NCBI GenBank assembly: GCA_016930235.1
Contig: JAFGHI010000038.1
Span: 34,211-98,210 of the forward strand
Source: Candidatus Omnitrophota bacterium
GTDB taxonomy: Bacteria > Omnitrophota > Omnitrophia > Omnitrophales > Aquincolibacteriaceae
Length of the DNA: 64,000 bases
Direction: 5' to 3'
Under the pieces are notes generated by a model, which did no database searches, was not told the DNA's origin, and saw only the letters and a program-made list of their open reading frames with translations. Shown one piece after another: positions 15,001 through 62,985 of the stretch (position 1 is the stretch's first letter; each line of letters starts with the position of its first letter). The position numbers and the translations under genes are program-made.

Positions 15001-17857
15001 CCAAATCGATATCTTCCCGAATCATACGAAGTGGATCTACTAAATTACTCAGTATCTTGTTCGATAAAACCGGCACTTCTTCAACTTGTCTGGCTGACAA
15101 TTTCTGACCCTGTTGAAGCATGTTGAGCTTTTGCTCGATTTCACTTAAGATCTCACCCATACGCCGCCTAATATCTCTCAAGGCGTCACCCCGAACCTCC
15201 AAACCCAGTTCTTTCGCTTCTTTAACCTCAAGCGAAATATTGATAACAAGTTCGTCTATTAACTCTGAATCCAAAAGATATTGAAAACGCCGAAACCATG
15301 ATGGTGCATCCATCCCGAAATGTTTAAGGGCAAATAAAATAGAACGCGAATCATAGAGGCGATTACCCTCCAACGTTAAACCCGTGGCCTCCCACCCAAG
15401 ATTGTTTGAAATTTTTCCCCAATGCTCTCTCATCCAATAATCGCCAAGCACCAGATCAAGGAATGCAAGTTTCTCTTCAATCGTCAAGGCATCCGGATCT
15501 TCCGTATTCTCCAAAAGCGTCATTTCCGAGATAATAAGCTTTAATTTTTTCGCTATCTTAGCCGCCGTCCCTTCAACCTGAAGCGGAGTGAAAGGTTGCC
15601 CACGTTCTGAATCTCCAGGCTTAGAATTTGGTTGCTTACGTAATTCTGAGCGGCTCACGAGCAGATTGGCATCATCGATGCTCACATGAGACAAGAACAT
15701 TTTTCCGCCGTTGATCGTGATCTCCCCCAAATCCTTGCCATACCCTAATAACTGCCGCACTTCCGAGCGGCGGGTTTCTTCCGGTGCCTCAATTGCAGCA
15801 AATCGGCTTCCGGCATTGGGACCGAAGGATGTCACAAACAATTGGCGACCATCCACAGCGGTATGACGAGCACCTTCGGCAAGAAATCTAATAAAGTTTC
15901 CGACTGGCTGCACAAAATCACGATTCGTTTCTTGGAGTCCCCAAGTTGTGCTCAAATGAGATCGGATATCCGATACCGTCTCCGCCATATTTCCATGTCG
16001 AAAAACGCTTTGAATGAATGTAAGGAGGTTAAAAAAGAAAATTTTCGACGCCACGGGGTCCTGAAGTGTCATCCTCAAAGCGGCATTCTCCTGGGTCTTC
16101 GAAAATTCGCTTAGTAATTTCATGGCTTGGCTTTCATCCACCATCATCCTCCAGGCTGTCAATTGATACCTTGGATCATTTAATTCCGTGTTGGGAGGCG
16201 GAAAATAGGACTCCACAAGGACATCTTCAATCGGCATCGGCTTTTGGCTTAAAGCATCGGCATAAAGTGTAGACTCGCGGGCTTCATCTACAGCCCCGGC
16301 AATCCTGGGAGTAATGACAATGTAGGAAATATCCTGCTCCCTCAAATACCGCTCAATTCCCGGGGTATGAAATCCGCCGGCCACCACCGCCGAAATTTTA
16401 TTATTCTCCGCTTCCATTTTTGCCACCGCTTTTTCGATCAGGATCCTATCGCGTGACAAAGCTGCGGAATAGAATCGCTCGACACGCGGCAGGTCCTGAT
16501 CGAGTTTCTCCAACTGGGACGGCAGTCCGTAGGAGAATTGGTATTTCTCTAAAAGCGGTGTTAAAAATCCACGAAATTTCTCGGCTTTAAATTCATCCTT
16601 GTAGCTGAAATAGAAATCGGCATCCTGCTTGGTCATCGTAAAATCAAACATCTTCTCATAGACGTCATAAATCCTCATCAAACGATCCAACCCGCTCTCG
16701 TCTTCTGTCTTTGTGAGTTTATCCTTGATGCCACGCTCCAGAGACTCAATCTCATCAAATATCTCGACTCCGATCGATTCATACAACTGGATATAGCGCA
16801 GGTATTGCAAAACGTTCTCAAATCGTTCTTCCTTAGGACCGTTTTTTTCTTGACCGAATCGCTGAGATACCCCCTTGATTTCGCTCTCCAGGTAACCGTA
16901 ATAGTCTCCTCGTTTCATCTTCTTCATCCGGAATTGGACTGTATTGTTGATAAATTGGGATAATCGATCGCGCGAAATAATGCTCTTTAAATCATCCACA
17001 AGATTTTCAATCTCGTTTTCTGCCTTGGAGAAATCTATCTTATTTTCCAATTCAACAAGTTCTAACAGAGCATGAGTTGAGGGGTAATCGTAGAGAGAAA
17101 GATGTTGGCCTTTTGCGAGATTGACTAAATATCGGACATAACTCGTAAGTTCACGGCCTCCTTGATTAAAAACAATTTTGCGTCGCCTGAGCTCTCGAAG
17201 ATCATCCGAAAATACAAAACGGGACAACTTGTCAAGAATTTGATGCAATTGAGATAGAATTTCTTCGTCAGCTTCCTTAAATTCAAGAGCGGCCAAATAA
17301 GCATCTCGGTTCTGGTCATAGAGATCCTTATCCTCGACACCATAAAGCTTTATTTCAGGTCGTTTCGTTATGGCCAAATATTCAGGACCCGTTAACCGTC
17401 CTTCTCTTAAAAAATAATCGGCGACATTTTTCTTTGCCACGACATCGGGATAAAAGTTGAATATTCCTGTAAATAAATCACCCGTTGCGCCCTCTAAGCT
17501 TATTGTTTTTAATTCATGATGCTCGCTAAAATACTCCAGGATATCCGCTAAATTCCGCTGCGCCTCTTCATTGACATGAGCATCCTGAAGATGAATGACA
17601 AGACGGTCACGAGTTCCCTTGAAGCTTGATTTGATCTTCCCCATGGATTCCGGCAGTTGGATAGCGTCCAGTTTAAGCCGTGAAGAATTTGAAAGGATAC
17701 TTTCTAAGTTGTAAGGCGACTTATTTTTTTGAAGGACTGAATTGAGGATATTGACATCACCCGCCCAGATAGTCGAGGTATACGTAAAAACCAGGGCAGT
17801 TAACAAGGCTACAGTGCGAAGCCACAACCTCGCGCTCGGTTTCTGCCATTCTAACAT
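1..17857 (-). CDS. Giant ORF, 5' end at the ATG at 17857 and 3' end beyond the window start, so at least 5,952 codons are in the window. The predicted protein has a signal/TM-like N-terminus (MLEWQKPSARLWLRTVALLTALVFTYTSTIWA) and internal hydrophobic islands; the rest is charged and helical with no family I recognise.
   Basis: No ORF longer than 182 aa appears in any of the six frames of the supplied track across 17.8 kb. I translated the minus strand by hand from the ATG at 17857 and found no stop down to position 1. An in-frame TAA lies just upstream at 17882-17884. The frame arithmetic is 17857-2+1=17856 nt, i.e. 5952 codons, and local frame checks at about 10030 and about 5005 agree with the same frame. 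The translation reads as protein throughout. Confidence 0.8.
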   Translation of the reverse strand, partial: MLEWQKPSARLWLRTVALLTALVFTYTSTIWAGDVNILNSVLQKNKSPYNLESILSNSSRLKLDAIQLPESMGKIKSSFKGTRDRLVIHLQDAHVNEEAQRNLADILEYFSEHHELKTISLEGATGDLFTGIFNFYPDVVAKKNVADYFLREGRLTGPEYLAITKRPEIKLYGVEDKDLYDQNRDAYLAALEFKEADEEILSQLHQILDKLSRFVFSDDLRELRRRKIVFNQGGRELTSYVRYLVNLAKGQHLSLYDYPSTHALLELVELENKIDFSKAENEIENLVDDLKSIISRDRLSQFINNTVQFRMKKMKRGDYYGYLESEIKGVSQRFGQEKNGPKEERFENVLQYLRYIQLYESIGVEIFDEIESLERGIKDKLTKTEDESGLDRLMRIYDVYEKMFDFTMTKQDADFYFSYKDEFKAEKFRGFLTPLLEKYQFSYGLPSQLEKLDQDLPRVERFYSAALSRDRILIEKAVAKMEAENNKISAVVAGGFHTPGIERYLREQDISYIVITPRIAGAVDEARESTLYADALSQKPMPIEDVLVESYFPPPNTELNDPRYQLTAWRMMVDESQAMKLLSEFSKTQENAALRMTLQDPVASKIFFFNLLTFIQSVFRHGNMAETVSDIRSHLSTTWGLQETNRDFVQPVGNFIRFLAEGARHTAVDGRQLFVTSFGPNAGSRFAAIEAPEETRRSEVRQLLGYGKDLGEITINGGKMFLSHVSIDDANLLVSRSELRKQPNSKPGDSERGQPFTPLQVEGTAAKIAKKLKLIISEMTLLENTEDPDALTIEEKLAFLDLVLGDYWMREHWGKISNNLGWEATGLTLEGNRLYDSRSILFALKHFGMDAPSWFRRFQYLLDSELIDELVINISLEVKEAKELGLEVRGDALRDIRRRMGEILSEIEQKLNMLQQGQKLSARQVEEVPVLSNKILSNLVDPLRMIREDIDLVLSDLEVVSVRREQPEEISSEPQPEEVSSELQPEEILSIEGFEIPTMRESPLSEEDVAQYPMTLQGAIRKILARRLRSQVTGLPIVSSFSVDVPAKKIFKRIQKEFGFNQSDLVTLSQVTGLSLDASIEQWRYVLHQLIKAREAYYVQQDLQRKPEKKYGIWADKIISPFWRPMRWVLLAGPKLLDQFFYSFYRRKLKFHWLRYLKGSLFGRDFGFLEVDELPRGLAAETLAGAMIAATKPNFGRSFLDWQQGTLVERGVYHIFLRHQPVVSVLNQVQYGQHVLGYSYRILDKLLLQPFLIPTIQFIQKRWKMALFSAIGMGLITILMPAGLAGVNLLGGYAPFLLGLTEKVPVLGITVAAFVNAFTLSSFSNTALLSFMLTIPNFSARFTKMRLDQTIVSQLSKLKSNIQSLDYVSLREIVEGVVASESLEAGEKIEFIQEIEALLPHIRYTADPQREYLESLLQQELQKLRSQPLEQTPARAPPSIQAPSLFQQKIVAPLMGILRSLRSFAFYRAYISSVCGMLIVGAEIALLAGGEAPGQMGLSQLIDKGLSKAVSLIREKPVDITFFSHPVVFAERRAMNWGHWLLGKAEELTGLDVSGTVMRMTARVMGVAGLHTQAGDLALSGWSSRDVQDFQHAQRVLAEHQQSPKWEGWDGTDVARLLTDIGEGKVDVQSFRDQEHERLQLLLMVADTEYRIDKKDAQGYDVAGLRDALNQVEAQIQRPELTLRGEEARRVFQGMAYAIDGLQKKVTEPSVPETPEIEPVEPTGPQLPTFREYLDSLFRGPQTDVDQPPQEPQVPEEPVSTPDMPRKPLPLIPDAAEIERQRIARDFAEGRPKEGPHVVKLEDYAVSASQGFEFLLTEDPQRAADYADDLWNIVFPSGAEPQDEVTRERIERYQTLGKNEEERVEEQKAIRELNLIIFTRRLMANMGLPPHQEISEEHQDLIEYRLLQIIQRYNPGAIEKYRDRYEALGREVQSMGSEVLQPALIAPLKPMESEAPFEIRSVIQGGGMVALGAGMVRPRGPDDTFVQEFMESLGTSQARVIEDIIYEGEVGKAKLRYEEVLQRRFQLTLQINWAISDMFMGRTPRGEWVGIRRAVQEDVPPAFHGKYLADFLNDIQIVTGPPIDTGGIEGPEGVSPDAVQSSIQNAIALVNVIEEANRNFETLGLEVPWMEDVQTRFQQAVREGDETGLNRLVNQVVLAGHAYAQLAPSLVLYLRAKEVGFEINQGHLERLLGQIGEQVQIVGGMDEKQLSAPLNLVEGLIVAFENDITYYEEARAAFLKIEDLLKEGGLLSRRTELVKRFETYRKAVESYDGTPGRLEELRKARDIFDHQRRYTEYEIRIDRLPTVSDEIRGLLNDYAKAIDAGEGYDEIQANLEASLGIYRSEEMIKQIGLAAERYNFEDAEILLALDRPLAVVLSEAPTAQELERLQQLPNEIGIAVLYGEVLVFSSGNESAVEIETYGPVRQLLEKASLSIHTHPASIEVQGPSAFDIEESGQTNEYVLTSEVGENGTAVHHAYRYNAEGNRGEVELQEVIDSIENAIMLDVANPSRPDLETVYKDIVLKFIADMEKLDRLWDELKADYRLGNPAVVYSMWLNYFASGRGDFYFDDVTGDVFFRFNPSAQTQVFSTLLNSGFDAFRAQFNIEQDLGFDTTQPNGRALDAIFGNSAGLIRYLDHISKGELEINVTSGEIILRPSGGDVVNATEQLQNMADLVADIFEDPQIRSSIGLVLDPSTGQLEITSQTLRRIFGDFGIGTLQLPSGYQFQGGFLGFLEGYLLAGNGIYEKETNRLIYPGGNEINLAERVQSLIDLVESPAFRHILQISYNDQDLQWVSGLEEVNQIISDGSILSIVNMMLPGASTFDEMTGEIRFSSNTVVNASERLSDLVGILVGDFRDALGVTFENGKFQSSNVGIQAILNEFPGGFGSLLGYMVTGDLQTTADGDVLVTKAIGNLSFTYNLMDAAHGFAAMMQDPRTIEFLGIDPETATFDPSNPNASYFLNENVPSMITLVNRMGLREARVGRDIEERDGERFLVAETYNVMQTFENIGSLLSDPDVQDALGLKVDPITGGIQIDPASDSSIRQYFENADLRVVDFTIFLAERVRTNEQGEKVVPILNEKGYAIREISIGDYAEGISRLMEIPLLAEVIQEGLTEERIADLEQRRAERGPGVVVGGVEAEPISSREVIDNLVFLTSEQAFLTLAENELFNTILYKNEELQGLLLFYADSVVLRGNETYLKFPEREAVHAGTFFNLVDGLLNSRFRELVGASSETEFYDFLTSDEDFMRQANGLLTTLALDHAEIAKMLRDVGVSSSKANVIALVNQMVKIKDKVNDMRARANESGLNIFNSKEFAILQAIAAESMVDGVDVEDVLYEPILQIALVGRILIFDTNQSRTEKQLKIQQDIERLLGQVKRNVERDFIDGLREMQALKVRIQDLEAKREDLNSQLKQYQAAVTDEALDRLLAGRISRERANFFRQQLEILDDEIMVQEHRAQNLRRHLDMLYDGDLDKILDNGAATALEGLKTMWRAAGLDGKLMAEIKTIQRRLDRAEAGLDRSILGGLVEFQAVIDFFVDITRLTEMNTYGTIFRLEPVIRAKIGKRLYDENQIRIREWMTARIEMERAIQRFSDEAVKNDRMLTDAGGILKLQEAALEKAASRREEVLGDPVAQPQKRLDVINQYFRILDDYRRTETEIIQRELTQTAYKRAQDEGLLKVRTAGAGQEGSIEVTVDSLSAMAKANHVLKPLHERLATAQQRYRNEANFINAFLRGIELDASIGGVFNLTKSTESSLSHFFDEGILTWSLVLSIVVYDPARPARVERLRLGVEEASLRFEDADDLMNLNIAEHFVRIGEIQNVIRQVRRDVDVIGEQIRTARDSDERQSLGISLAEKEYQLERLIADRKGMEVDLKSFIGLNPDAKFARDETTGEIDVDAALAFDATTVLQAYSQYFEFNEAGEVTGLKVEGEEALNRVGALLEDLEIQIQKSRRITIEEKDHLLQGLYQMRKVYRDAIVEQPSAEIYEINREVERIKKIKDEGRQIQEFALLAQKYPDNVYIRQHQFVQHVGIAYNANLTTPEGLNLAREHLNQAKLVVTGLFEIGTEEAREVAQEFLDQWTQHSREERTARLELAKRFRSDGLRQAEQGYYSEALRLLDDAIEVQASLDLFKQSGNIWLDYLQVEANRTTENLLRAKASITRSLDADLAEQFSPMNRAFVQKRLQDIHERSYLSTADYESAVVELRGLFQLADSPYGKVQVGAELARMQNEWARVLVTIRDKVDFRDVMDFLFQWDYEKRSDYLRTESAEENLNVAQSVIANTRQIAVSRIQQLEKNLQPVLQVQAQSISDLLELQESMDEKQLGQLYELAGLKDLVLQLNRSEEGWLESYRMLRKMVVSSENEEVGLAETLEAQRIVLEDRLEKMQRRGLRSMTAEDLGALYRGYQQLLVASEGEAQEKARQNLTVVENVMFEKIYSELGLTPRDGLEQALDVIRLKESDSDWRMRDFEKFNRNILGGLKPYLEMNWDFIQISNEAHWRLAELMITRGLTKDQDFQNVLSVINEVRYVNDDARGRADILRIQALQENFSYMEEKKADPSEMREIVLQIERLLDHIPDAFSNHAKVEAAKKAVKRYDTTVDSLIAKRREQEEIANVQKTVEQVETLRASGQEIQAVMDQASRASTDKAAVGILSRGLKQYPQSDALQGALMERARSLEGEGEYEDALSTARLVLTKNPSHREADQVRDRILEMMIRNKIGAINNRIQEDADARVDDLLDDVRKLTEEDGVMSLEAGVKTPDFILRLLMTLDVLRQEYARADGEKFNAKQRKIREVFEELNHILSGDVYPFAQSDLLLLQAQMLQARISEVKAGEPWKIKFGFDNWMNSSMHGVSGLGFLFGFDIPENIKAEILKFIPLINELSGANRYLQDRRNQIRLLENEVDQFFLQLDRQRAVQHQQQRLIQNLYETTYAQYRLAEEFLGVQQDEVDRLEDLFVLGSVRTADVTRAKNAVLQTLDDMAASGYRLAFLKARMAKLGMESSLDLEQRVERDFQPRDSVNAARARGDLDGFYALVKGRLRNEHARIVHASVSNIEGYQRGLELPFSTYTEAEVFARRSGGLPQLALTERGEHVRPSLKLSIPLLNASFFKTAERQAIQVEQEIGIEQEAVVKGHREQVLTAYARYGIAKAVYELLSTRDQQAQSLLDTVELASSLQQWGYDGVYFGRMNLRRAENELIRSARDLENALEGLHDLLSQAGLPVDVNAFVPREFHSIELGDDLLERLVQEGKGEWDRDTMARLIQERLARIKIADEALVYQKWVPNIDLNIEAPHPVTGDVRFGISLIWQIFGHGIDQRRGILRITEEQLNAQGAQVRMQVQAELETLLADLKHARQRMTTLQQRSVSENLEAEVNNLQEKLLAQKISAFDIQNIINSTFDLDVRYRAAMVDYLVAYARFMRRLETLGVEIPEQLRPSLYRDRQAEETPFMKEMKRVASRKLTAEGIGEPALRTLEELPQESQSRLAEIKARESDIREKVVVGAPTTAFANLTDVLQYGEGRNTFQSLAPLDSLGLKLFESNLFHSYLWEPGRLLYEMAKDVSAGMEGADTAERELMSLLEEGSPFEGQVTEQKTDQILPEVRDVLGIQYPRVYDEAKGVVQKQLETIQLEAAQAASELEGKTDAESIAELARLNQILGIRLDEGTYYGYWYVWTTLALQKIPHLAQGLLTGSVDVEGELKPRLNKDFFLQNVNDVEKMVFDVRTQSFVGVVNYSGVSTRDREEAVYELTESVNQVREALGLERGHIDEPEMQYIVAAHDSVRRSREQYFDYDDYKGYLELIHLVLAEGRRNPSEPGTIQNYYGDFLAKDSNGRYDIPLEEIAEREGFAMLGQSMLDVLDWREDLGLLDSVLDTAKDQAVRQTNRAKAVGEGLIREDATLDEIRTEANQLRAQLESAVQVVDRLERDFRTSIMMGGVSFWTEHVLNQMKQEYD
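14903..14965 (-). repeat. In-frame tandem repeat of roughly 27 nt (about 2.3 copies) inside the giant ORF. It encodes an acidic Pro/Glu/Ser-rich peptide repeat (..EEISSEPQPEEVSSELQPEEILS..).
   Basis: I see directly that ggttgaagctcgctagaaacttcttca is followed by ggttgaggctcgctagaaatttcttcg and then ggttgctcacg... Confidence 0.6.
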
Positions 17858-18272
17858 TTGAGTTTGCCGTCCCTTGGAATGTTAAAATCGAACTCTACTG
17901 CTCAGAAACAAATACGATATATTGCTTATATAATACTTTTTAAAATGTTAATAAAGTATACACTACAAGTGATATTCCGTCAATTGAAAGAGCCGGATAG
18001 ATGTGATTACATCTTCTTTGATAGCAGCATGTTACGTAGGCATCTGATAAATATTACATATTCTTATAATTGAATTCCTTTTTCTTTCAAAATGAAGCGT
18101 CTTCAGGAGTTAGATAGAAAATACCATTTTGCCTTTTCGATGTCTCTAGTGGGTTAAGACAGTGCACTGGGTCGAGCTAGTTTACGCGATTTTTTATGGG
18201 AAGTCTCTCTAGAGCGAACCATCTACCTATTTCGGGTTAACTTTGGTTCATTTTTCCCAGCGTTGGGAAAAA

Positions 18273-25847: not shown

Positions 25848-25992
25848 TGAGCATCACCGGAATTCCATCACGAATCGGGTATTTCAAACCGCAACCTGCC
25901 CCTGTACAGATAATTTGGTTGTTCTCTTCTCGTACTGCCGCTTTACATGACGGACAAGCCAATATCTCCAAAAACTCTTTCTCTAGACTCAT
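25825..25992 (-). CDS. Trm112/YcaR-like small zinc-ribbon protein of 55 aa ([55 protein letters not shown]).
   Basis: It is below the 60-aa cutoff of the ORF track. Its ATG overlaps the TGA stop of the upstream gene (ATGA), and it has the CPxC...C.GC pattern typical of Trm112-like proteins. Confidence 0.65.
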
Positions 25993-26969
25993 TGCAATTC
26001 CTCCATTTCGTGAATCACTTGTGCTCGCAATCCACCACGAAAAGAATAGATAACTCCGGCCGTTAAACTAAATCCATAGATGACCATATCAACGAGAATG
26101 GAAAGAACCAGAGCTCTTTCTGACGGCACAAAGCGACTGAAGAGATAAATCAGTCCGGCCTCGCGCACGCCTAAACCGCCTAGTGATGGCGCCATGCTAA
26201 CAATCGCTACAACGGGAACTAAAACAAAGAAAAGCCATAACGGCATATCAATTCCCAAACCCAAGGCTAACCAATAATGCAGCACGATAAACATGCAATG
26301 GGCGGCCACCGAAATAAGGATTAAAAAACTCATTAGGAGTTTATGATTTTTATAGTTATAAATCGCATAATACACATCGGTTAAACGCTTTTTCCACTTT
26401 TCTGACTTCACCCACCCTGTTACAAATTTAAATAGACGCGCAAAGCGCCGGCTCGCGAAGAAAAAAACCACCAAAAGCATCACTGCCAAAAAACTATAAA
26501 CTACCTGGTTGATATGAGGATCACTTATTTCCTTACTAAAGACCATGATGGCGCCAACAGCCATTAACATCAAAGCAATAAACCCCAAGAGCCGGTCCAG
26601 CACAACCGATGTCATCGATTCAATTTTCTTTCCGGAATGTTTGTAAACATAGAAAGCTTTTCCAACGTCTCCCCCAACAGCCGAAGGAAAAAAGAGATTA
26701 AAAAAGAGTCCAATATAGCTTAAGTAAAAAGACTCCGAATATTTTAAGATTATATTTTGAATTTTAAGAACATGTTGGATTCGAACAGCCTGAATTAAGA
26801 GAGCGCAAAGATACGTCAGGGCAGCAAGGAAAAACCATCCCCAGGCAACTTCGGTCTTGAGAATCTGTATCGCTTCCCCCAACTTATCCCGAAGCGAATA
26901 AAGAATAAGCCCAATCGCACCAAAGCTGATGCCTATTCGGAACAGAGTCCCCTTAATGCCTTGTTTCAT
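25989..26969 (-). CDS. Polytopic membrane protein of the flippase-like/lysylphosphatidylglycerol-synthase transmembrane-region type (UPF0104-like).
   Basis: It has about 8 predicted TM helices and a GGLGVRE-type motif. Confidence 0.55.
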   Translation of the reverse strand: MKQGIKGTLFRIGISFGAIGLILYSLRDKLGEAIQILKTEVAWGWFFLAALTYLCALLIQAVRIQHVLKIQNIILKYSESFYLSYIGLFFNLFFPSAVGGDVGKAFYVYKHSGKKIESMTSVVLDRLLGFIALMLMAVGAIMVFSKEISDPHINQVVYSFLAVMLLVVFFFASRRFARLFKFVTGWVKSEKWKKRLTDVYYAIYNYKNHKLLMSFLILISVAAHCMFIVLHYWLALGLGIDMPLWLFFVLVPVVAIVSMAPSLGGLGVREAGLIYLFSRFVPSERALVLSILVDMVIYGFSLTAGVIYSFRGGLRAQVIHEMEELQ

Positions 26970-27346
26970 ACTTTCTCTGAAAATTTCATTTGGAGTTCCG
27001 TGAGAAGTTGCGTCATCACTTCTGATTCCTCCCGGCTCCGGTTACCTTCTGATTTTTCTTTCAGCATCGATAAGATATTAATAACCTCTCGAGCGGCCTG
27101 AAGATTGACCTCCCTCTCTTGGGTCTCTGGATTTGGAATCTCCCCCAAATGAAACATGGCTTGGACCCCTAAAGAAGAAAGGAGATTCATAAATGCCTTA
27201 GAGGTGGTCACTTGGTTTTGCGACGCATGCGAGGGCGCCTGAGCCTGAGGCTCCGGCGTTTTCCATAACGGCCGTTCTTTCTGGGCCGATTCTTTCCAAC
27301 TTTGATCTACCTTTTTATCAGAAAATCGAATGTCTTTTTCCATCAT
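26966..27346 (-). CDS. DUF1844-family small protein.
   Basis: The motif FMNLLSSLGVQAMFHLGEIPNP resembles the conserved DUF1844 core. Confidence 0.5.
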   Translation of the reverse strand: MMEKDIRFSDKKVDQSWKESAQKERPLWKTPEPQAQAPSHASQNQVTTSKAFMNLLSSLGVQAMFHLGEIPNPETQEREVNLQAAREVINILSMLKEKSEGNRSREESEVMTQLLTELQMKFSEKV

Positions 27347-27703: not shown

Positions 27704-28438
27704 TTAGCCTTCCAGAAACTCCACCGCAATACCGAGCTGCTTTTTGACCAACTGCTTACGGCTGACCTTCCCCTTGAGGCTGTATTCCTCAGGGAAATTG
27801 GCATTCGGGTAAATGCGAATCTCCGTCTTGATCCCTCTAAGCGGCTCCAAACGGTCAATCTTTCTTGCCGCCTCTAAGTCCAAATATTCCGCAAAAAGTC
27901 CCCCCTCACTGATATTCGTCGCAATTGCATGCGTTTCAATGGGTTCATGTCCATCCGGGAATATTTTGAGATCAATCGGAATCGCCACATGCATCCGTTT
28001 GCTTCGTCGTCTTTCGAGGTTATATCCCATCGATTGCTGATCAAGGATCTTTCCTTCAGATCCAATCTGCTTCTCGGAATCCTTCTCTAAAAGAAAGGGT
28101 CCCAAATCCTCAGCAACCTCCTTTTCGGTTTGGCAAATCCTTACGTTTCTCGGCAAATAGGTCCCTTCGAGATAGTGGGCAATCACGTTTGAAGCCCCAT
28201 AAATGAGACTTCGTTGAGGCCGAATACATGCCGCCAACAAACTCCTCATCCCTAAAGGTTCGAGAAACGGTAAGAATTGTAGGTTGATAATCACCCTCTG
28301 GAGACGATGCCGTCGGATATTACGCTGAATCTTCCAGGCTATTTCTTGAAGAGTTTCCTGAGTCGGACTCCCCTCAAGATCGAACACCTTGACAGTTCCA
28401 ATTTCACGCGTACTGACTTTCAGCTTACTCATGGCCAT
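27704..28438 (-). CDS. STAS (anti-sigma-factor-antagonist-like) plus PilZ fusion protein, a putative c-di-GMP receptor.
   Basis: The N-terminal SpoIIAA-like pattern is present (GTVKVFDLEG...VIINL...LIYGAS...EVAEDL). The C-terminal PilZ motifs are RRRSKRMHV (RxxxR) and ATNISEGGLFA (D/NxSxxG). Confidence 0.65.
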   Translation of the reverse strand: MAMSKLKVSTREIGTVKVFDLEGSPTQETLQEIAWKIQRNIRRHRLQRVIINLQFLPFLEPLGMRSLLAACIRPQRSLIYGASNVIAHYLEGTYLPRNVRICQTEKEVAEDLGPFLLEKDSEKQIGSEGKILDQQSMGYNLERRRSKRMHVAIPIDLKIFPDGHEPIETHAIATNISEGGLFAEYLDLEAARKIDRLEPLRGIKTEIRIYPNANFPEEYSLKGKVSRKQLVKKQLGIAVEFLEG

Positions 28439-28573
28439 CGTTTCCTCTTCTTGCGTTCTTGATCGAGTCGCCGGAGATTCGCATGCATGGCAGGCCGGAT
28501 ATAGCCTGTTAGCATCATCGATAGGTCTACCTCCGACAACCGAAGAGGTCCCCCCTTCATGTTTTTTCTACCG

Positions 28574-29362
28574 TTAAAAATTCCATTGACCATTTGTCCC
28601 ACCCGTTTCATTCAAATTAAGAAGATAAATCCATTGATTGAGACACACCATCTCGTTGGGCCCCAATTCATAGAATTCAATACCGATGCCGCCTAGATCA
28701 CCGTCGTAGCGAATCATTTTCCCTTTCAAGGCAATCGACTCCATCGGTGAAAAAAATAGATTCATGTGCAATAGTTTCAAATCATAGGGGTTGAGATTCT
28801 CAATCAATAACCGCTCTGATCCTGATTCGATAAATCGCGCATAAAGACCCGTCTCGCTAAGATTCGTTACAACCCCAAAAAAGAATAACTCTTTACTGTC
28901 ATCCATTTCACAATGAAAGTGAAGTGGCAATACAAGAGGAAGCCTGTCAGCCTTTCGCTTCTCGTCAAATCCTTTTCCTTTATTGTCCAGGGCCATTTCT
29001 CTTGCAAAGAAGAACGTAGCATCGTCTTCATCCTGAAAGATCGATAACCTCTTTCGGACGGAGAAATCTTCAAGGACCGCCATCACTGCCGGATCTTTGG
29101 CAATCACAGCGCTCTTAGGAACTTTTTCCATAGACCGGATAATTGATTGGGCCATTCGGTGACTCAAATCATTAACTGATTGCGTGTGGAAAAGAAGGGC
29201 TTTTGTGCCCTTCTCTCCACAAAGGTGATCAATCTTCCCTGCCACGGCAGATCCCTTTTCTCCCTGGGTGTCCGATATCAGCTCAAGGATTTTGACATCC
29301 CCGATATTCTTTTTAATAACTTTTATATTCATCTTGCCTCTGTAAGCAAAGATACACCACAA
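28574..29362 (-). CDS. Second STAS plus PilZ fusion protein, a paralogue of the adjacent gene.
   Basis: The N-terminus is STAS-like (IGDVKILEL...ALLFH...AVIAKDPAVMAVLEDFSVRKRL). The PilZ motifs are RKADRLPLV and VTNLSETGLYA. The likely start is MNIKV at about 29332. Confidence 0.6.
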   Translation of the reverse strand: MWCIFAYRGKMNIKVIKKNIGDVKILELISDTQGEKGSAVAGKIDHLCGEKGTKALLFHTQSVNDLSHRMAQSIIRSMEKVPKSAVIAKDPAVMAVLEDFSVRKRLSIFQDEDDATFFFAREMALDNKGKGFDEKRKADRLPLVLPLHFHCEMDDSKELFFFGVVTNLSETGLYARFIESGSERLLIENLNPYDLKLLHMNLFFSPMESIALKGKMIRYDGDLGGIGIEFYELGPNEMVCLNQWIYLLNLNETGGTNGQWNF

Positions 29363-29570: not shown

Positions 29571-30953
29571 CTAACTTCTTTTCCCTAAGCGCTCTTGGAG
29601 TGTCTTTTCAAAACCGCTATCTTTAGGTAGGTAATACCTTTTTTTTCTGCTCCAGTATTGCTGGGCAGCCGCCTTATTGGGATCCTTGGCATCATGAGTA
29701 TAAATATAACCTTCTCCGTGCCCCATGCGTTTTGCACCGGAATAGCTTCTGTCTCGAAGATGGTTTGGCACTTCTTCGGATTTTTTCTTCTCGATATCGT
29801 CTAACGCCTCGCTGATGGCCTGGTAACTGGCATTACTTTTCGGCGCCATCGCCATATAAGTAACCAACTGCGCCAGGATAATCCTCCCCTCAGGCATTCC
29901 CACAAATTCAATAGCTTGCATCCCTGCGGAAGCTAAAATCAACGCCTGGGGATCAGCATTGCCAATATCCTCACTGGCCAGGATCAAAATTCGTCGAACA
30001 ATAAATCTTGGATCCTCACCCGCATAAAGCATTTTAGCCAGCCAATAAATCGACGCATCGGGGTCAGACCCTCGCATGCTTTTAATGAAGGCACTTGCGG
30101 TATCATAATGATAATCTTCATTCGCATCATAATAGACGACTCTCCTCTGACACGATTCCGCAGCAACCTGTATATCAAATCGAACAACACCCTCCGAATC
30201 CGGTTGTGTCGTCAGGACCCCCAACTCCAATGCATTTAAAGCACGACGGGCATCACCTGAGGCAGATTTGGCCATATGTTCAAGCGCTTCTTTTGTGATA
30301 TCTATCTTCAATTGTCCCAATCCCCTTTCAGGATCCTTGAGGGCCTTTTCCATAATCTGAACAAGGTCTTTTTCTTCAAGCGGACGCAGCTCAAAAATAG
30401 TGGAACGGGACAGCAAAGGCCCATTGATCGAAAAAGAAGGATTATGCGTTGTTGCCCCGACCAGGACAATATGGCCCCTTTCGACGTCGGGCATCAGCAC
30501 GTCCTGTTGAGCCTTATTGAATCGATGGATCTCATCAATAAAAAGAATGCTCCGTTTCCCCTGCAAACGCTTCAATTGATGGGCCTCATGAATGACCTTG
30601 CGGATTTCAGCAACATTGGATGTTACAGCGTTTAATCGTACAAAATGGGATTGGGTGACGCGTGAAATAATCTGCGCCAGCGTGGTTTTTCCGCTCCCCG
30701 GCGGGCCATAAAAAATCATCGAAGTCCACCGGTCAGACTGGATAGTTCGCCTAAGAAGCTTTCCTTCAGCAAGGAGGTGCTTCTGGCCTACAATTTCCTC
30801 TAAGTTCCTCGGCCGCATTCGAACAGCCAGCGGGGCTTGGCTGGACTTCTCATCCTCATGCGGAGCCATAGTCTCTCCCTGAAAAGATTCAAATAATTCT
30901 GACGTCTTTTCTGGAGTCAATCTCTTTTGTCCGAGCCCTTTGGTGTGTTTCAC
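29571..30953 (-). CDS. rarA: Recombination factor RarA/MgsA (AAA+ ATPase).
   Basis: It has the Walker A GPPGSGKTTLA, an RMRP motif and a C-terminal MgsA helical domain. The start may be the internal MAPHEDEK at about 30869. Confidence 0.85.
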   Translation of the reverse strand: MKHTKGLGQKRLTPEKTSELFESFQGETMAPHEDEKSSQAPLAVRMRPRNLEEIVGQKHLLAEGKLLRRTIQSDRWTSMIFYGPPGSGKTTLAQIISRVTQSHFVRLNAVTSNVAEIRKVIHEAHQLKRLQGKRSILFIDEIHRFNKAQQDVLMPDVERGHIVLVGATTHNPSFSINGPLLSRSTIFELRPLEEKDLVQIMEKALKDPERGLGQLKIDITKEALEHMAKSASGDARRALNALELGVLTTQPDSEGVVRFDIQVAAESCQRRVVYYDANEDYHYDTASAFIKSMRGSDPDASIYWLAKMLYAGEDPRFIVRRILILASEDIGNADPQALILASAGMQAIEFVGMPEGRIILAQLVTYMAMAPKSNASYQAISEALDDIEKKKSEEVPNHLRDRSYSGAKRMGHGEGYIYTHDAKDPNKAAAQQYWSRKKRYYLPKDSGFEKTLQERLGKRS

Positions 30954-37508: not shown

Positions 37509-37967
37509 ATGAACCTGATGCGAAGAAACAACAAAAATGAATGGTTAGACCCTTTCAGCTTCCTGACCTCACTGCACGACGACCTTGATCGATTTTTTGC
37601 AGTACCGGTTTTACGATCAAGGGGAGAAATCACTCCGCTCGTCCCGCAGATTGATGTTGAGGAAGATGCCAATAACTACGTTTTGCGTGCCGATATTCCC
37701 GGAATTAAGAAAGAAGAGCTCGATATTTCGGTTCAGGGAAATCGCCTCACACTAAGAGGTGAGCGAAAGCACGAAAGGGAAACCAAAAAGGACAAAAACT
37801 ATTACCACTGCGAAAGATATTATGGGAATTTTGAGCGGACCTTCGAATTCCCTGAAGATATCAATCCAAGCGTTATCAAGGCCAATTACAAAGACGGCGT
37901 TTTGGAAATCGCAGTGCCGAAAAGCGAGGAGAAGAAACCAAAGCAAATTAAGGTCGACATCAATTAA
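37509..37967 (+). CDS. Small heat-shock protein (Hsp20/alpha-crystallin).
   Basis: An alpha-crystallin domain is present (..ADIPGIKKEELDISV..GVLEIAVPK), with a strong AAGGAGG Shine-Dalgarno upstream. Confidence 0.85.
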   Translation: MNLMRRNNKNEWLDPFSFLTSLHDDLDRFFAVPVLRSRGEITPLVPQIDVEEDANNYVLRADIPGIKKEELDISVQGNRLTLRGERKHERETKKDKNYYHCERYYGNFERTFEFPEDINPSVIKANYKDGVLEIAVPKSEEKKPKQIKVDIN

Positions 37968-38112: not shown

Positions 38113-38820
38113 ATGAACATGACAACCGAACATTCCGATAAAAAAATGAAGACGCTTTACGGAGTCATCGTGCTCCTGCTTCTGGCCATTGTTGTTGAAA
38201 CAGGCATTTTAATCCAACAGCAACGGACAGGATCCGAAGCAAAGTCGGATCAGCAAGTATCCGTGGAACGCGGGCTTGAGCCATCTCGAACACCCGTTTC
38301 GCATCCGGCAAATTCCAAAAGGCAAAATTATTCACCTATGCAACGTTTTTACCAACGCTCAGGGGATCCTTACTGGGACGATCCGTTTGCGATTGCCAAA
38401 CAAATGCAAAGCCGGATGGACCAGCTCATGAGCTCGCTCATGACCTACCGTCCATCGTTTGGAACAAGCCTCGATGACACGTTTGACTTTTCTCTCGCCA
38501 TCGACCTTGAAGATACAAAGGATGCCTATATTATCCGAAGCGATATACCCGGCCTTGAAAAAGACAAGATCAATATCACCGTTCAAGACAATCTTTTGAC
38601 GATTCAAGGAATCCGGGAAAGTGTATCGCAAACGGAAAATGATCAAAGCGGGTATTTCGCTCAAGAAAGAAGCTATGGGTCTTTCTCAAGGAGCATCAAT
38701 CTTCCGGGCCCAGTGGATGACACAAACATCAACGCGAAGTATGAAAACGGTGTGCTTGTAATAACATTGCCCAAAGCAGATCGGGAGGATACTCGCATGA
38801 AAAAAGTGAGCATCCAATAA
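38113..38820 (+). CDS. Membrane-anchored Hsp20-family protein: an N-terminal TM helix, a linker, then a C-terminal alpha-crystallin domain.
   Basis: A hydrophobic stretch LYGVIVLLLLAIVVETGILI is followed by ..SDIPGLEKDKINITV..GVLVITLPK. The start is probably the second ATG at 38119. Confidence 0.75.
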   Translation: MNMTTEHSDKKMKTLYGVIVLLLLAIVVETGILIQQQRTGSEAKSDQQVSVERGLEPSRTPVSHPANSKRQNYSPMQRFYQRSGDPYWDDPFAIAKQMQSRMDQLMSSLMTYRPSFGTSLDDTFDFSLAIDLEDTKDAYIIRSDIPGLEKDKINITVQDNLLTIQGIRESVSQTENDQSGYFAQERSYGSFSRSINLPGPVDDTNINAKYENGVLVITLPKADREDTRMKKVSIQ

Positions 38821-50676: not shown

Positions 50677-52689
50677 TTAAATCTCACCTTCGTGAAACAA
50701 CTCCACTATCTTATCAACAATATAAGGATCAAACTGTGCCCCCTTCGATTTCCGCAACTCTTCGACCGCTTCGGATTTGGTTAAGGCCTCCCGGTAAGGG
50801 CGGTCCGTCGTCATCGCATCAAACGCATCGGCTACACGGATAATTCGTGCGAAAAAATGGATCTCCTCACCCTGCTGGTGAGACGGATAACCCGAACCGT
50901 CAAAGTTTTCATGATGATGCTCCACCCCAGCACAAATATCGTCATTCAGCCAGCCCCGCATCGGCTCCAGGATCTTCAAGCCATCCACGGTATGCCGCTT
51001 AACGATCTCCCATTCCTCTTCGCTCAACTTCGTTTGCTTATGCAGGATCCCATCAGGAACTCCGATCTTTCCCAAATCATGCAGCTGAGCCGCCCAATTC
51101 AGGTTAGCCACGCCATGACGAAAAAGGCGGAGTTCCTTCTCCAGCTTCTTGCCAATAAGCCCCGCATAATGAGCGACCCGGTTACTATGCCCGCACGTGT
51201 AGGGATCTTTGGCTTCAATCACCGTAATCAAGATATGCTGGCTTGCGACAATGAGCTCGATCTTCTCCTGCTTCAGCATGAAATCATGGATCGCTCGAGC
51301 CACGTTATTCGACAGCGACGAAAAAAGTTCCAGGTCCTCCTTATGGATCACCTCTTCGGGTTCCAACTTCTGACCGATATTCACAATCGCCAAAAGCTTC
51401 CCCTCACAAAAACATGGGATACTGATGCTTGCCCCTAAACGTTCCATGTCATCAATGATTTCAGCGGTAAAAGACCGGTCCTCAAAGTATCCTATTTGCG
51501 TATCCAGATAATATTTTAGCTCCTGACGAACCCGCAGATTCCTTTTCCGCAAGAGCTCCACGACAAGAGCGCTATCCATCGAAAACACTAAGCCTTTCGG
51601 GACCTTCTGTCTTGATTTCGAGCGTGTATGGCTAGCCATCAAAACAAATTCCTTATGGTGATGATCCAACACCATGATTCCGACGTAGTCTAATCTCACC
51701 CAACTGCTCAAATCCCGCACAAGATAAACCAGGAACTCATCAATATTTTTGACGGCCGCTATCCGTTCGGCGGTCTTTTTAAGGATGGGGCGATAATCTG
51801 CCCTCCTAGAGAACTCGAGGACCTCCATTTGCTTGACAAAATCAATGAGCCGGAACAACCCAATACCGAACATAAAAGCAATCGACACCGGAAAAAAAAT
51901 CCAATTTGCACCAAAGAGATTATAAAGATAGGGCTGGATATAATACGAAGTAATATGAATTCCAATCGCAGCCACCACGCATAAAGACGTAATGATTGAT
52001 GCCTTCCGGATAATAATATTGACCGTCAAAAGGCGGTACTGAACAATCGAATACGTCGTCCCCACCATCAGCAGAATCAAGAAAATAAATCCCATGGGAT
52101 AAGAAACAGACCCGCCGTAATTAGGGATATAATCGACCACCCCAAAACAACCGATACAAAAACAAAGCAGAATGAACCTTCGGCGACGGCGCTCAAAACC
52201 GGCTTTTTCAGATCGATACCCGATATAAAGATTTAAAAAAGCCAGAATCATGGGAATCAGCCAAAGAAATAAGAAAACCGTGTGCGGCACGCCGACAAGA
52301 ACATGCCAGCCCCAAGGCATCCGGCAATAGCCCGATATAAAACTTGGATGAAAGACAAGGATCAAAAGTAAAGTACAAAACAAGTAAACCAAAGGAACCC
52401 GGACCCTTTGTTTTTGTAAGTTCGTAAATTCAACGGAAAAATGATAGGTCGCCGCCGGGAGAAAAGCGACTCCGAGATAAAGCAAACGAATCGATAAATC
52501 CCGCAAAACCCTGTCTTCAAGAGCCCATGAAATGGCATTTCCAAATTGCCAAACCGTAATACAAAAAAAGAGCAGAGACACACTGCGATTGAGCGGGGCG
52601 ATTTTATTTTTCGACAGGACAAATAAACTCAGCGTTAAGGCGCATAAGCCTGCCAGAAAAGGCGGTAGGAGATAGAGAGTCAGGATCAA
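50677..52689 (-). CDS. Membrane-associated HD-GYP phosphodiesterase: an N-terminal multi-TM (7TM-receptor-like) domain, a GAF-like region and HD-GYP.
   Basis: There are about 7 N-terminal TM helices. The HD domain has HSNRVAHYA...HDLGKIGVPD, and the HHENFDGSGYP motif (GYP) is present. Confidence 0.75.
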   Translation of the reverse strand: MILTLYLLPPFLAGLCALTLSLFVLSKNKIAPLNRSVSLLFFCITVWQFGNAISWALEDRVLRDLSIRLLYLGVAFLPAATYHFSVEFTNLQKQRVRVPLVYLFCTLLLILVFHPSFISGYCRMPWGWHVLVGVPHTVFLFLWLIPMILAFLNLYIGYRSEKAGFERRRRRFILLCFCIGCFGVVDYIPNYGGSVSYPMGFIFLILLMVGTTYSIVQYRLLTVNIIIRKASIITSLCVVAAIGIHITSYYIQPYLYNLFGANWIFFPVSIAFMFGIGLFRLIDFVKQMEVLEFSRRADYRPILKKTAERIAAVKNIDEFLVYLVRDLSSWVRLDYVGIMVLDHHHKEFVLMASHTRSKSRQKVPKGLVFSMDSALVVELLRKRNLRVRQELKYYLDTQIGYFEDRSFTAEIIDDMERLGASISIPCFCEGKLLAIVNIGQKLEPEEVIHKEDLELFSSLSNNVARAIHDFMLKQEKIELIVASQHILITVIEAKDPYTCGHSNRVAHYAGLIGKKLEKELRLFRHGVANLNWAAQLHDLGKIGVPDGILHKQTKLSEEEWEIVKRHTVDGLKILEPMRGWLNDDICAGVEHHHENFDGSGYPSHQQGEEIHFFARIIRVADAFDAMTTDRPYREALTKSEAVEELRKSKGAQFDPYIVDKIVELFHEGEI

Positions 52690-57469: not shown

Positions 57470-58408
57470 TTATATCTTGTGACCGGATTGAACCCATTGG
57501 ACCGCATGGCGGATTAATTCCATATTGTCCTTAAGATTCAATTTCGACTTGATATTGGCCCGGTAGGTCTCCACCGTTTTAACGCTCAAATGCAGGTTCT
57601 TAGCTATCGCCGAGGTCGAAAGTCCCTCTCCAATCGATTGAAAAACCTCGATTTCCCGGTCGCTTAACGTGTTAATCGGGGATGTCTCTTCAAAGGATGC
57701 GCCGCTTTGCTTCTCAAGCATCTTTTCCGTCATGGTATTGCTGAGATAGATCTTCCCATCCAAAACCCGTCGAATGGCCGTCATAACATGCTCTCGTGCG
57801 GATTCCTTGGCGATATAACCCCGGGCACCGGCCCTGAGAACCCTCTCGGCAAATAGCGATTCATCATGCATCGAGAGCACCAAAATAGGGGTTCCGTCCC
57901 CTTGGGCCCTGAGCCACTTGATCAAATCCATGCCATGGCTGTCTTTCAGCGTTAAATCCAAAATAATCAAATCGGGACGAACCTTTTCAATATCCGCGAT
58001 GGCATGATCAACCTTCTCAGCAAAACCGCAAACCTCCAAATCTTTCTCACAATTGATAAATTGCGCCAACCCCTCTCGGTAGAGAGGATGATCATCGACA
58101 AGGTAAACCTTTTTTTTCTCATTGCCATTCGATTTCGCTTCTTTGCGAGCTGGCATATTACACCCCAGCGTTTGACGGATTTGCCCCCTGAAATCTTCCA
58201 AGGCATTGTCATCAGACGATTTTTGGTCCGACGGCTGTATTGTATCCACCTTTTGATCTCCTGCCAAGTTAAGATATTCGTTTCGAATGGGCTTCTTCTT
58301 CAAACTTCTCAGGAATGAGGCTGAATCTCCAAGGGCACATCCTGGCGAATCATCATCCACTGAATAATTGCGATCAAGTTCTCCTGGGAAATTGTTTTTC
58401 GAAGGCAC
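57470..58408 (-). CDS. NarL/FixJ-type response regulator (REC plus LuxR HTH).
   Basis: The REC domain shows VYLVDDHPLYREG...ILDLTL, and the HTH is LSDREIEVFQSIGEGLSTSAIAKNLHLSVKTVETYRANI. The 5' 100 nt overlap the upstream CheY gene, so the true start is probably the internal MPARKEAK at about 58156. Confidence 0.75.
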   Translation of the reverse strand: MPSKNNFPGELDRNYSVDDDSPGCALGDSASFLRSLKKKPIRNEYLNLAGDQKVDTIQPSDQKSSDDNALEDFRGQIRQTLGCNMPARKEAKSNGNEKKKVYLVDDHPLYREGLAQFINCEKDLEVCGFAEKVDHAIADIEKVRPDLIILDLTLKDSHGMDLIKWLRAQGDGTPILVLSMHDESLFAERVLRAGARGYIAKESAREHVMTAIRRVLDGKIYLSNTMTEKMLEKQSGASFEETSPINTLSDREIEVFQSIGEGLSTSAIAKNLHLSVKTVETYRANIKSKLNLKDNMELIRHAVQWVQSGHKI

Positions 58409-58704
58409 AATTCCGCTCCCCGGGCGAGGATTTCCCCTCGGATTTCCATATCGTCATAGCCGGTTAAAACAATAATCGGGGGTTTTTCAAACTGCTCCAG
58501 ATGATTTAAAAAATCAATCCCTGTCATATCCTGAAGGAAATAATCTAAGAGGACTACATTGATTGACAGGTCTTTCTGTTGGAGAAATTTGATGCCGGAT
58601 TTCCCTGAACCCGCTTCCAAAACGCTGTAACCTTTTTTAACAAGTACACGGCTCAGAACATCGCGGTACCACTCATCATCATCAACCAATAAAATAGTTT
58701 TCAT
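58309..58704 (-). CDS. Single-domain response regulator (CheY-like).
   Basis: Matches through ILLVDDDEWYRDVL...VLLDYFLQDMTG. Confidence 0.8.
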   Translation of the reverse strand: MKTILLVDDDEWYRDVLSRVLVKKGYSVLEAGSGKSGIKFLQQKDLSINVVLLDYFLQDMTGIDFLNHLEQFEKPPIIVLTGYDDMEIRGEILARGAELCLRKTISQENLIAIIQWMMIRQDVPLEIQPHS

Positions 58705-59990: not shown

Positions 59991-60140
59991 CAGATGCCTC
60001 CGGCCTGCCGAGAAAATAGATTTTTGAAGGGGGTAAGATCATATAAAAAAGGAAGGCGGAGTGGCAATCAGGCAACTGCTTAAGAGCCCCTCCGATAAAC
60101 ACCTAATGGCTTATCAGATAAACCCTGAGTTTTTGGCTTT

Positions 60141-62879: not shown

Positions 62880-62985
62880 TTTGATTCTCCTTTGAGGAGG
62901 CGGTAGTAATTATTATACCAAACAACAAATTATCTGTCTCAGGGGCTTTTTGAACTCAGATTGGAAGGATGACAAATTCCAGGGG

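Follow-up and report, generated by a model that had tools for sequence, protein, structure and literature searches.

Tandem STAS–PilZ fusion proteins in an Omnitrophota genome and their predicted gating by c-di-GMP

PilZ and STAS domains both rank among the most widespread signalling modules of bacteria, and have been studied as taking their input from a bound ligand and from phosphorylation, respectively. Here we describe two adjacent genes, T1 and T2, each encoding an N-terminal STAS domain fused to a C-terminal PilZ domain, in a stretch of 64,000 nucleotides from a Candidatus Omnitrophota bacterium (GenBank assembly GCA_016930235.1, contig JAFGHI010000038.1, positions 34,211 to 98,210 of the forward strand; hereafter the window, in which all coordinates without a locus name are given). 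The fusion is a real combination of two well-known domains, not previously described and restricted to part of a single uncultivated phylum, and a mechanism in which cyclic dimeric guanosine monophosphate (c-di-GMP) acts on the STAS domain is plausible from the sequences.

The closest described proteins on the STAS side are the anti-sigma antagonists SpoIIAA, RsbV and RsbS (PF01740), which have the same α/β fold as the N-terminal domains of T1 and T2 (target template modelling score (TM-score) about 0.7–0.78) and share with T1 the Asp and Gly residues framing the switch loop. However, these antagonists are single-domain proteins with a phosphorylated Ser and work in modules with a kinase and a phosphatase, whereas T1 and the window T2 have neither Ser nor Thr at that position, are fused to a C-terminal PilZ domain, and have no such kinase or phosphatase gene near them. 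Non-phosphorylation sensors coupled to a STAS domain, as proposed here, are exemplified by the LOV–STAS protein YtvA, one of whose structures (2mwg) is among the structural matches, and a redox-controlled STAS antagonist is known in RsfA of mycobacteria. The sensors of YtvA and RsfA are an N-terminal LOV domain and a disulfide, respectively, whereas that of T1 and T2 is a C-terminal PilZ domain, with no stressosome or RsbW context visible.

On the PilZ side, YcgR, MotI/DgrA, PlzD (VCA0042), PlzA and MrkH are of similar size (~230–250 amino acids), and their PilZ halves match those of T1 and T2 structurally. These xPilZ–PilZ receptors (Galperin & Chou, 10.1101/814665) likewise carry a C-terminal PilZ domain with the RxxxR motif at the interdomain linker, where bound c-di-GMP clamps both domains. 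Their N-terminal domain is a PilZ-derived β-barrel (PilZN, PilZNR), unlike the STAS-type α/β domain of T1 and T2, and Foldseek alignments of T1 and T2 with YcgR, VCA0042, MotI and MrkH cover only the ~100 residues of the PilZ half. Assignment to a YcgR-like class was therefore rejected, the N-terminal domain being no β-barrel.

Other described systems connect c-di-GMP with regulators of these kinds in different ways. The RsiG–σ(WhiG) pair of Streptomyces is a sigma/anti-sigma pair controlled by c-di-GMP (context: PMC13232838). Unlike T1 and T2, RsiG is neither a STAS nor a PilZ protein. In HsbA–HsbD, a STAS protein stands upstream of c-di-GMP synthesis (PMC5085249). There, and in the stressosome–cyclase module of Moorella (PDB 3ztb), the making of c-di-GMP is under STAS control, the reverse of what a PilZ–STAS receptor would do. 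Finally, sensor-less σ54 activators are regulated in trans by separate proteins in the PspA–PspF, HrpV/HrpG–HrpS and FleN–FleQ systems. A comparable layout is found in a sister clade of the genomes considered here, in which a gene of ~330 codons for a sensor-less AAA+/HTH_8 protein adjoins T2–T1, as expected for regulation in trans; it differs from the PspA–PspF-type systems in that the sister-clade activator has the loop sequence GSFAGA, the gene is absent from the window, and the arrangement is known from gene order.

An earlier note on this DNA, made from its sequence alone, had known of no described STAS–PilZ fusion, and the targeted literature searches bear this out: no description was found, and STAS is mentioned neither in the structural survey of PilZ proteins (10.1101/814665) nor in the similarity-network survey (10.1101/2020.02.11.943704), although the combination may be listed uncommented in InterPro or Pfam architecture tables. 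Databases tag some members of the family with both Pfam domains, and the Joint Genome Institute (JGI) names two of them 'anti-anti-sigma factor'; the architecture is thus detectable but undescribed.

Domain architecture and c-di-GMP motifs

T1 and T2 lie on the minus strand as open reading frames (ORFs) inside positions 27704–29362, with start codons set by matching database proteins. The evidence for each feature is given in brackets.

27704..28432, minus strand: T1, STAS–PilZ protein of 242 amino acids, identical to P0001 (ORF, AlphaFold2, Foldseek)
28091..28426, minus strand: T1 STAS domain, residues 3–114 (Foldseek; Pfam STAS in relatives)
28250..28264, minus strand: T1 switch segment, LEPLG, residues 57–61 (hidden Markov model alignment to SpoIIAA 1auz)
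27995..28009, minus strand: T1 RxxxR motif, RRSKR, residues 142–146, preceded by R141 (linker–PilZ junction)
27899..27916, minus strand: T1 [D/N]xSxxG motif, NISEGG, residues 173–178 (motif read from the sequence)
27713..28015, minus strand: T1 PilZ β-barrel, residues 140–240 (model secondary structure, Foldseek)
28574..29332, minus strand: T2, STAS–PilZ protein of 252 amino acids, identical to P0121 (ORF, AlphaFold2)
28991..29329, minus strand: T2 STAS domain with degenerate switch region, residues 2–114 (Foldseek)
29156..29170, minus strand: T2 switch segment, DLSHR, residues 55–59 (column counts against T2 orthologues)
28943..28957, minus strand: T2 RxxxR motif, RKADR, residues 126–130 (motif read from the sequence)
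28847..28864, minus strand: T2 [D/N]xSxxG motif, NLSETG, residues 157–162 (motif read from the sequence)
28610..28963, minus strand: T2 canonical PilZ domain with C-terminal helix, residues 124–241 (model, Foldseek, Pfam)

Both proteins are labelled 'PilZ domain-containing protein' by NCBI, from a Candidatus Omnitrophica metagenome-assembled genome (MAG). They are alignable end to end with 22% identity (E 5e-11) and are thus paralogues.

The results described below confirm that T1 and T2 are true STAS–PilZ fusions carrying both c-di-GMP motifs, as the earlier note had claimed for the two genes, since family-level Pfam scans, AlphaFold2 models, Foldseek searches and motifs agree. Taken singly, T1 scored 21.3 bits against Pfam PilZ (cut-off 22.5) and 16.1 bits against Pfam STAS (cut-off 22.6), T2 scored 27.6 bits against PilZ, above the same cut-off, and gave no match to STAS, and an NCBIfam scan of both proteins added nothing significant. 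As proof of the STAS assignment, Pfam and NCBIfam scans of single sequences did not suffice, and for this purpose family-level scans and structure prediction took their place. Over 56 relatives of T1, PilZ was found at E<=0.01 in 53 and STAS in 38, with a best STAS E-value of 3e-8. A profile search against PDB sequences retrieved SpoIIAA marginally (E 0.18), a match that was used for aligning the phospho-site and not as proof.

AlphaFold2 models built on family alignments were confident for both T1 (predicted local distance difference test score (pLDDT) 85.8, predicted TM-score (pTM) 0.83) and T2 (pLDDT 86.5, pTM 0.84), each with an α/β N-terminal domain of four to five helices. In Foldseek searches against the PDB, the N-terminal domain of T1 matched SpoIIAA (1til/1tid), RsbS (6jhk), RsbV, TM1442 and 4hyl with target TM-scores of 0.74–0.78, several of the SpoIIAA entries being complexes with SpoIIAB. 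That of T2 matched the anti-sigma antagonist 4qtp (target TM-score 0.76), 1vc1, TM1442, RsfB (8ih8) and RsbS (6jhk), with target TM-scores of 0.69–0.76 to 4qtp, 1vc1 and 8ih8. The C-terminal domain of T1 matched VCA0042 (2rde), MotI/DgrA (5vx6) and the PilZ domain of BcsA (5ej1/4p00), and that of T2 matched Alg44 (4rt0), PA 4xrn, YcgR (5y6g), MapZ (5xly) and the CeSA PilZ domain; VCA0042, MotI, Alg44, YcgR, MapZ and BcsA are among the matched structures solved with c-di-GMP. By these matches both proteins have the six-stranded β-barrel of PilZ. The canonical definition of PilZ includes a C-terminal α-helix after the barrel (Galperin & Chou, 10.1101/814665). Such a helix is present in the T2 model at residues 225–241 and absent from that of T1, in which the last strand is the end of the protein. 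Residues 121–150 of the linker, including RxxxR, have a pLDDT of 57–62 while the pTM is 0.83–0.84, in keeping with a compact protein of two domains whose ligand-binding junction is flexible.

The c-di-GMP motifs are strongly conserved. In the 56-sequence alignment of T1, the residues R142, R143 and R146 of the first motif and N173, E176, G177 and G178 of the second are invariant, as are R126, R130, N157, S159 and G162 of T2 in its own alignment (A2). The motifs RxxxR plus [D/N]xSxxG are kept together in 41/44 T1 orthologues and 18/20 T2 orthologues, one of the two T2 exceptions being a truncated fragment of 89 amino acids, and both occur in nearly all full-length representatives retrieved by profile search. 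Judging from motifs and modelled fold, T1 and T2 are likely to bind c-di-GMP. The binding site is probably the interdomain junction between linker and PilZ domain, and the RRxxxR form of the T1 motif leads us to propose that T1 would probably bind c-di-GMP as an intercalated dimer.

The STAS switch region

In partner-switching STAS proteins the switch is set by phosphorylation, at the residue we take to be Ser58 in SpoIIAA. In the hidden Markov model alignment, L-D-P-L-G of T1 sits under M-D-S58-S-G of SpoIIAA, so that the phospho-position of the window T1 is Pro; the phospho-Ser column, counted on the SpoIIAA chain, is the residue directly C-terminal to the conserved Asp, at the start of helix 2. 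Over 44 T1 sequences this column holds Ala (16), Pro (14), Glu (6), Gln (3), Tyr (2), Asp (1) and two other residues, neither of them Ser or Thr, and is followed by a hydrophobic column, while in the T1 proteins of the sister clade it holds Glu, Ala or Asp. A phosphorylatable Ser/Thr is thus found at this site in 0/44 T1 sequences and in none of the sister-clade T1 proteins, although the conserved Asp and Gly framing the loop are retained in T1. The corresponding columns of the T2 orthologues hold Asp in 17/20 and Gly in 15/20, whereas the window T2 has Ser and Met instead: its switch reads N-D-L-S-H-R-M, in which the D-x-x-G signature of most orthologues is lost and Asp, site residue and Gly are all gone. 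The T2 proteins of the sister clade read D-[S/T]-L-[G/A] in 6/6 loci, keeping the phospho-site residue, and those of the clade without the AAA+ regulator have a variable, often acidic residue there. By this alignment, neither window protein has the defining phospho-site feature of partner-switching STAS proteins, and the search for a phosphorylatable STAS residue that the earlier note had proposed as a check came out negative for both.

The reading we lean towards, by a modest degree, is that T1 and T2 act as STAS adaptors gated by c-di-GMP, with ligand binding in place of phosphorylation, the history of the T2 and T1 partners given in the next section included. Both proteins would be small cytoplasmic c-di-GMP receptors, whose output is a non-phosphorylatable STAS interaction domain. 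By analogy to receptors of the YcgR, PlzA and MrkH type, binding of the ligand would fix the N-terminal domain against the PilZ barrel, and the domain so fixed would expose or hide its partner-binding face. Binding of c-di-GMP would thereby do the switching that SpoIIAA and RsbV achieve by Ser phosphorylation.

An alternative is classical partner switching, in which the STAS domain antagonizes an RsbW/SpoIIAB-type anti-sigma kinase from another part of the genome, with c-di-GMP as a second input added to phosphorylation. The best fold matches of the N-terminal domains are anti-sigma antagonists, some of them solved together with their kinases (SpoIIAA–SpoIIAB 1til/1tid/1th8, RsbV–RsbW 6m36, RsfB–UsfX 8ih8), Ser or Thr follows the conserved Asp in the sister-clade T2 proteins and also at loci L046 and L022, and the JGI name of two members points the same way. 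Nevertheless, we consider this unlikely on account of the T1 column and the degenerate window T2 just described, and because Pfam scans found no kinase, phosphatase or sigma factor of such a module in the window or the related loci. In the scanned ORFs of the window there is no GGDEF domain, no PP2C/SpoIIE phosphatase, no stand-alone RsbW-type kinase and no sigma factor, and the called genes of ~12 annotated related loci include no HATPase_c_2-only kinase, no PP2C/SpoIIE phosphatase, no sigma factor and no GGDEF protein; over ~55 related loci, neither a kinase nor a phosphatase came to light. The co-occurring RsbW/SpoIIAB-like kinase or PP2C phosphatase sought at the suggestion of the earlier note was accordingly not found in any of these sets, and its statement that neither a GGDEF protein nor an anti-sigma kinase is visible in the window stands, also for the giant ORF described below.

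The T1 STAS domain has further conserved positions, C69 being present in >=90% of the sequences, C100 invariant, and the arginines R9, R41, R43, R46, R63 and R71 invariant as well. The cysteines and arginines recall the redox-controlled antagonist RsfA or a site for an anionic ligand.

Conservation and partners of T1 and T2

Relatives of T1 and T2 were collected at E<=1e-3 by word-indexed search of a collection of 5.8 billion proteins, which yielded 311 for T1, from Omnitrophica/Omnitrophota wherever the name of the source is informative, and only seven for T2. When 1.84 billion representatives at 50% identity were searched exhaustively with a profile, only 87 proteins were retrieved at the same threshold, mostly of two domains and 220–270 amino acids with both motifs; most are T2-like clusters, which predominate because T2 diverges fast. 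Among GTDB species representatives, a full-length relative is present in 42 loci, all of Omnitrophota or unnamed MAGs, and one weak match to the N-terminal domain alone is a stand-alone STAS protein of an Aminicenantes genome.

T1 and T2 each form a monophyletic group of orthologues, with 50/50 sequences nearest to their own type, so the duplication is old. The adjacency that had suggested a specialised c-di-GMP-responsive switch to the earlier note does not go back to a recent, specialised local duplication: T1 is constrained, while T2 is fast-evolving and often lost, lying directly upstream of T1 in 18/41 assessable GTDB species and being absent from 23/41. Where both are present (19 genomes), T1 proteins share a mean pairwise identity of 0.57 and T2 proteins one of 0.30, the latter being lower in 170/171 pairs. 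The two domains also differ in opposite directions, STAS being more conserved than PilZ in T1 (64% versus 55%) and less so in T2 (26% versus 39%). The mean identity of T1 orthologues to the window protein (60.6%) lies beside those of rarA (62.6%), accB (57%) and pheT (53.7%); judged by these values, T1 is under housekeeping-grade constraint, conserved like rarA. With a mean identity of 26% to its orthologues, the window T2 looks like a decaying remnant.

The order rarA, T2 where present, T1, all on the same strand, is found in every assessable core locus, and a block of a DUF1844 gene and an LPG_synthase_TM gene usually follows. STAS domains are known to regulate transporters, as in MlaB and SLC26, and T1 might have a membrane or envelope role of the MlaB–MlaF or SLC26 type, docking on the DUF1844/LPG_synthase_TM pair. 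The pair lies directly downstream on the same strand at most loci, including the distant L051, L053 and L055–L057, and the invariant arginines of T1 would be in keeping with an anionic ligand or surface. However, the adjacency is gone in L010, L022, L030, L031, L032, L036 and L038 although T1 is conserved there, 357 nucleotides separate T1 from the DUF1844 gene in the window, the top Foldseek matches are STAS domains of the antagonist and not of the transporter type, and the adjacency is little informative in any case because the region from pheST to pfk is one syntenic housekeeping block; a membrane role thus appears improbable. Least probable of all is that the window T2 has become a relic without function, T1 being a plain PilZ adaptor with a passive N-terminal scaffold, which the degenerate T2 switch, the 26% identity and the loss of T2 from 23 species would favour, but which is opposed by the intact 252-codon frame, confident fold and both PilZ motifs of T2 (18/20 orthologues) and, as to a passive scaffold, by the higher conservation of STAS than of PilZ in T1.

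For the preferred reading as c-di-GMP-gated adaptors, a candidate partner comes from the sister clade, where the gene order is rarA, a ~330-codon AAA+ regulator gene, T2, T1, DUF1844 and LPG_synthase_TM. This cluster was reached in two ways, from the loci of divergent representatives and from an independent start at the neighbour gene. The regulator (307–335 amino acids) consists of Sigma54_activat and HTH_8 domains, without an N-terminal sensory domain, and its genes lie at the following positions of the respective loci.

L053, 2988–3977: AAA+ regulator
L055, 6001–6963: AAA+ regulator
L056, 6001–6987: AAA+ regulator
L057, 6001–7008: AAA+ regulator
L048, 2410–3411: AAA+ regulator
L051, 3166–4170: AAA+ regulator

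In L055–L057 the start of the regulator gene overlaps the rarA stop by 4 nucleotides, the gene being translationally coupled to rarA. At every locus bearing a regulator (7/7), the first or second gene after it, on its strand, encodes a STAS–PilZ protein, and this adjacency holds despite a differing outer context in L050, L051 and L057. The regulator forms an orthologue group of its own, of ~40 clusters whose named sources are all Omnitrophica. It is absent from the window, where the gap between rarA and T2 is only 238 nucleotides, and from the 42 core GTDB loci; a search for an orthologue elsewhere on the core-clade contigs gave no match, which is weak negative evidence. The clade of the window has lost the AAA+ regulator, and the ancestral cluster is kept in the sister clade.

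Because the ancestral cluster is rarA, AAA+ regulator, T2 and T1, T2 probably regulated the AAA+ protein in trans, and it may be envisaged as the trans-acting regulator of this sensor-less neighbour. After loss of the regulator in the window's clade, the constraint on T2 would have been relaxed, while T1 would act apart from the regulator, on another partner conserved in the clade. As a candidate partner, the AAA+ regulator is preferable to an RsbW-type kinase, although its identification as the partner of T2 remains tentative. More doubtful is a general scheme in which STAS–PilZ proteins form a second-messenger partner switch, the T2 type gating the GSFAGA-bearing AAA+ protein in trans and the T1 type acting on a housekeeping-linked target.

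Several observations weigh against the adaptor reading and its T2–regulator branch. The predicted c-di-GMP binding is drawn from motifs and fold, the PilZ score of T1 is just under the Pfam cut-off, and the Ser of the second motif is replaced by Gly or Ala in three T1 orthologues. The identity ratio T2/T1, 0.85 with the regulator as against 0.54 without it, speaks for this branch, but the comparison includes only six genomes with the regulator, and these lack phylogenetic independence. One syntenic block inherited as a whole, with no functional tie, could also account for the order of the regulator and STAS–PilZ genes. In addition, the loop reads GSFAGA in 31/40 orthologues of the regulator, as against GAFTGA in 59/80 generic bacterial enhancer-binding proteins from the same search, which makes the regulator's own σ54 link uncertain, and σ54-type −24/−12 elements lie upstream of STAS–PilZ genes at only 2/7 regulator loci (L048 and L050), with no good match in the window or at the other five. 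The AAA+ regulators may be atypical or σ54-independent.

If the adaptor reading is true, a fusion lacking the phospho-site and carrying a c-di-GMP site at its junction would mean that a second messenger can drive the STAS switch, and the sister-clade AAA+ neighbour makes a directly testable protein pair. It would also offer an initial way into the c-di-GMP signalling of Omnitrophota, which are ultra-small bacteria, possibly predatory or host-dependent, and without genetics. Its reach is limited by the narrowness of the family (87 representative clusters), by a function predicted from sequences and models, and by the decaying appearance of the second window copy.

The idea that STAS–PilZ genes are general σ54-dependent targets of the regulator was dropped in view of the 2/7 loci with elements. 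One of these, at position 4736 of L050, is a near-consensus −24/−12 element (TGGCATGAGTATTGCT). The regulator gene of the same locus (3432–4431) is split into two ORFs of 148 and 188 amino acids, which could be due to a frameshift, a pseudogene or an assembly error, and adjoins a single STAS–PilZ gene and a DDE_3 transposase gene. In L048, a CT398_CC/Zn_ribbon_9 protein is encoded at 7690–8412, directly 3′ of a divergent STAS–PilZ gene; it is seen at this one locus only, and the CT398/HP0958 family binds RpoN. In L051, belonging to one divergent lineage, proteins with MshEN, a different class of c-di-GMP receptor domain, are encoded at 999–3155 directly upstream of the regulator and STAS–PilZ genes, and include an MshEN–T2SSE secretion or pilus ATPase.

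Surroundings in the window

The genes flanking the pair, and a candidate for c-di-GMP turnover in the window, are as follows.

25989–26969: LPG_synthase_TM gene, overlapping the DUF1844 gene by 4 nucleotides
26966..27346, minus strand: DUF1844 gene, the usual downstream neighbour of T1
29571..30953, minus strand: rarA/mgsA, 460 amino acids (RuvB_N/AAA/MgsA_C by Pfam in orthologous loci)
50677..52689, minus strand: 7TM–GAF–HD-GYP protein, candidate c-di-GMP phosphodiesterase (Pfam HisKA_7TM, GAF, HD_5)

T2 and T1 are separated by 141 nucleotides. Scans for promoter and terminator consensus sequences around both genes gave matches no commoner than in shuffled sequence. The membrane HD-GYP protein reported in the earlier note at 50677–52689 was recovered with its 7TM, GAF and HD_5 domains and with its HD motif at residue 537 and its GYP motif at residue 600, and this candidate phosphodiesterase suggests that the genome has c-di-GMP turnover. 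By Pfam, the other ORFs of the window include thrS, infC, rplT, pheST, rarA, aroQ, accBC, pfk and thiamine genes, as well as two HSP20 genes, radical-SAM enzymes and two-component systems.

A giant frame free of stops, with 5,960 codons or more, occupies positions 2–17881 of the minus strand and runs past the start of the window. Its only Pfam match, at about residues 2385–2529 of the distal half, is a stretch resembling OEP (outer membrane efflux protein), and no GGDEF domain occurs in its ~6,000 visible residues. Many giant genes of Omnitrophota are reported to have small pilZ genes just downstream (10.1101/2023.11.21.568195); the corresponding position downstream of the present frame falls outside the window.

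Two tandem HSP20/α-crystallin genes (37509–37967 and 38113–38820) lie on the plus strand, opposite to nearly all genes of the window, and the second encodes an N-terminal extension of ~130 amino acids. A dense two-component cluster occupies 57470–63384 of the minus strand.

57470–58408, minus strand: REC–GerE regulator
58309–58704 and 62986–63384, minus strand: stand-alone receiver proteins
58704–59990, minus strand: GAF–HisKA kinase
60141–62879, minus strand: multi-PAS HisKA_3 kinase

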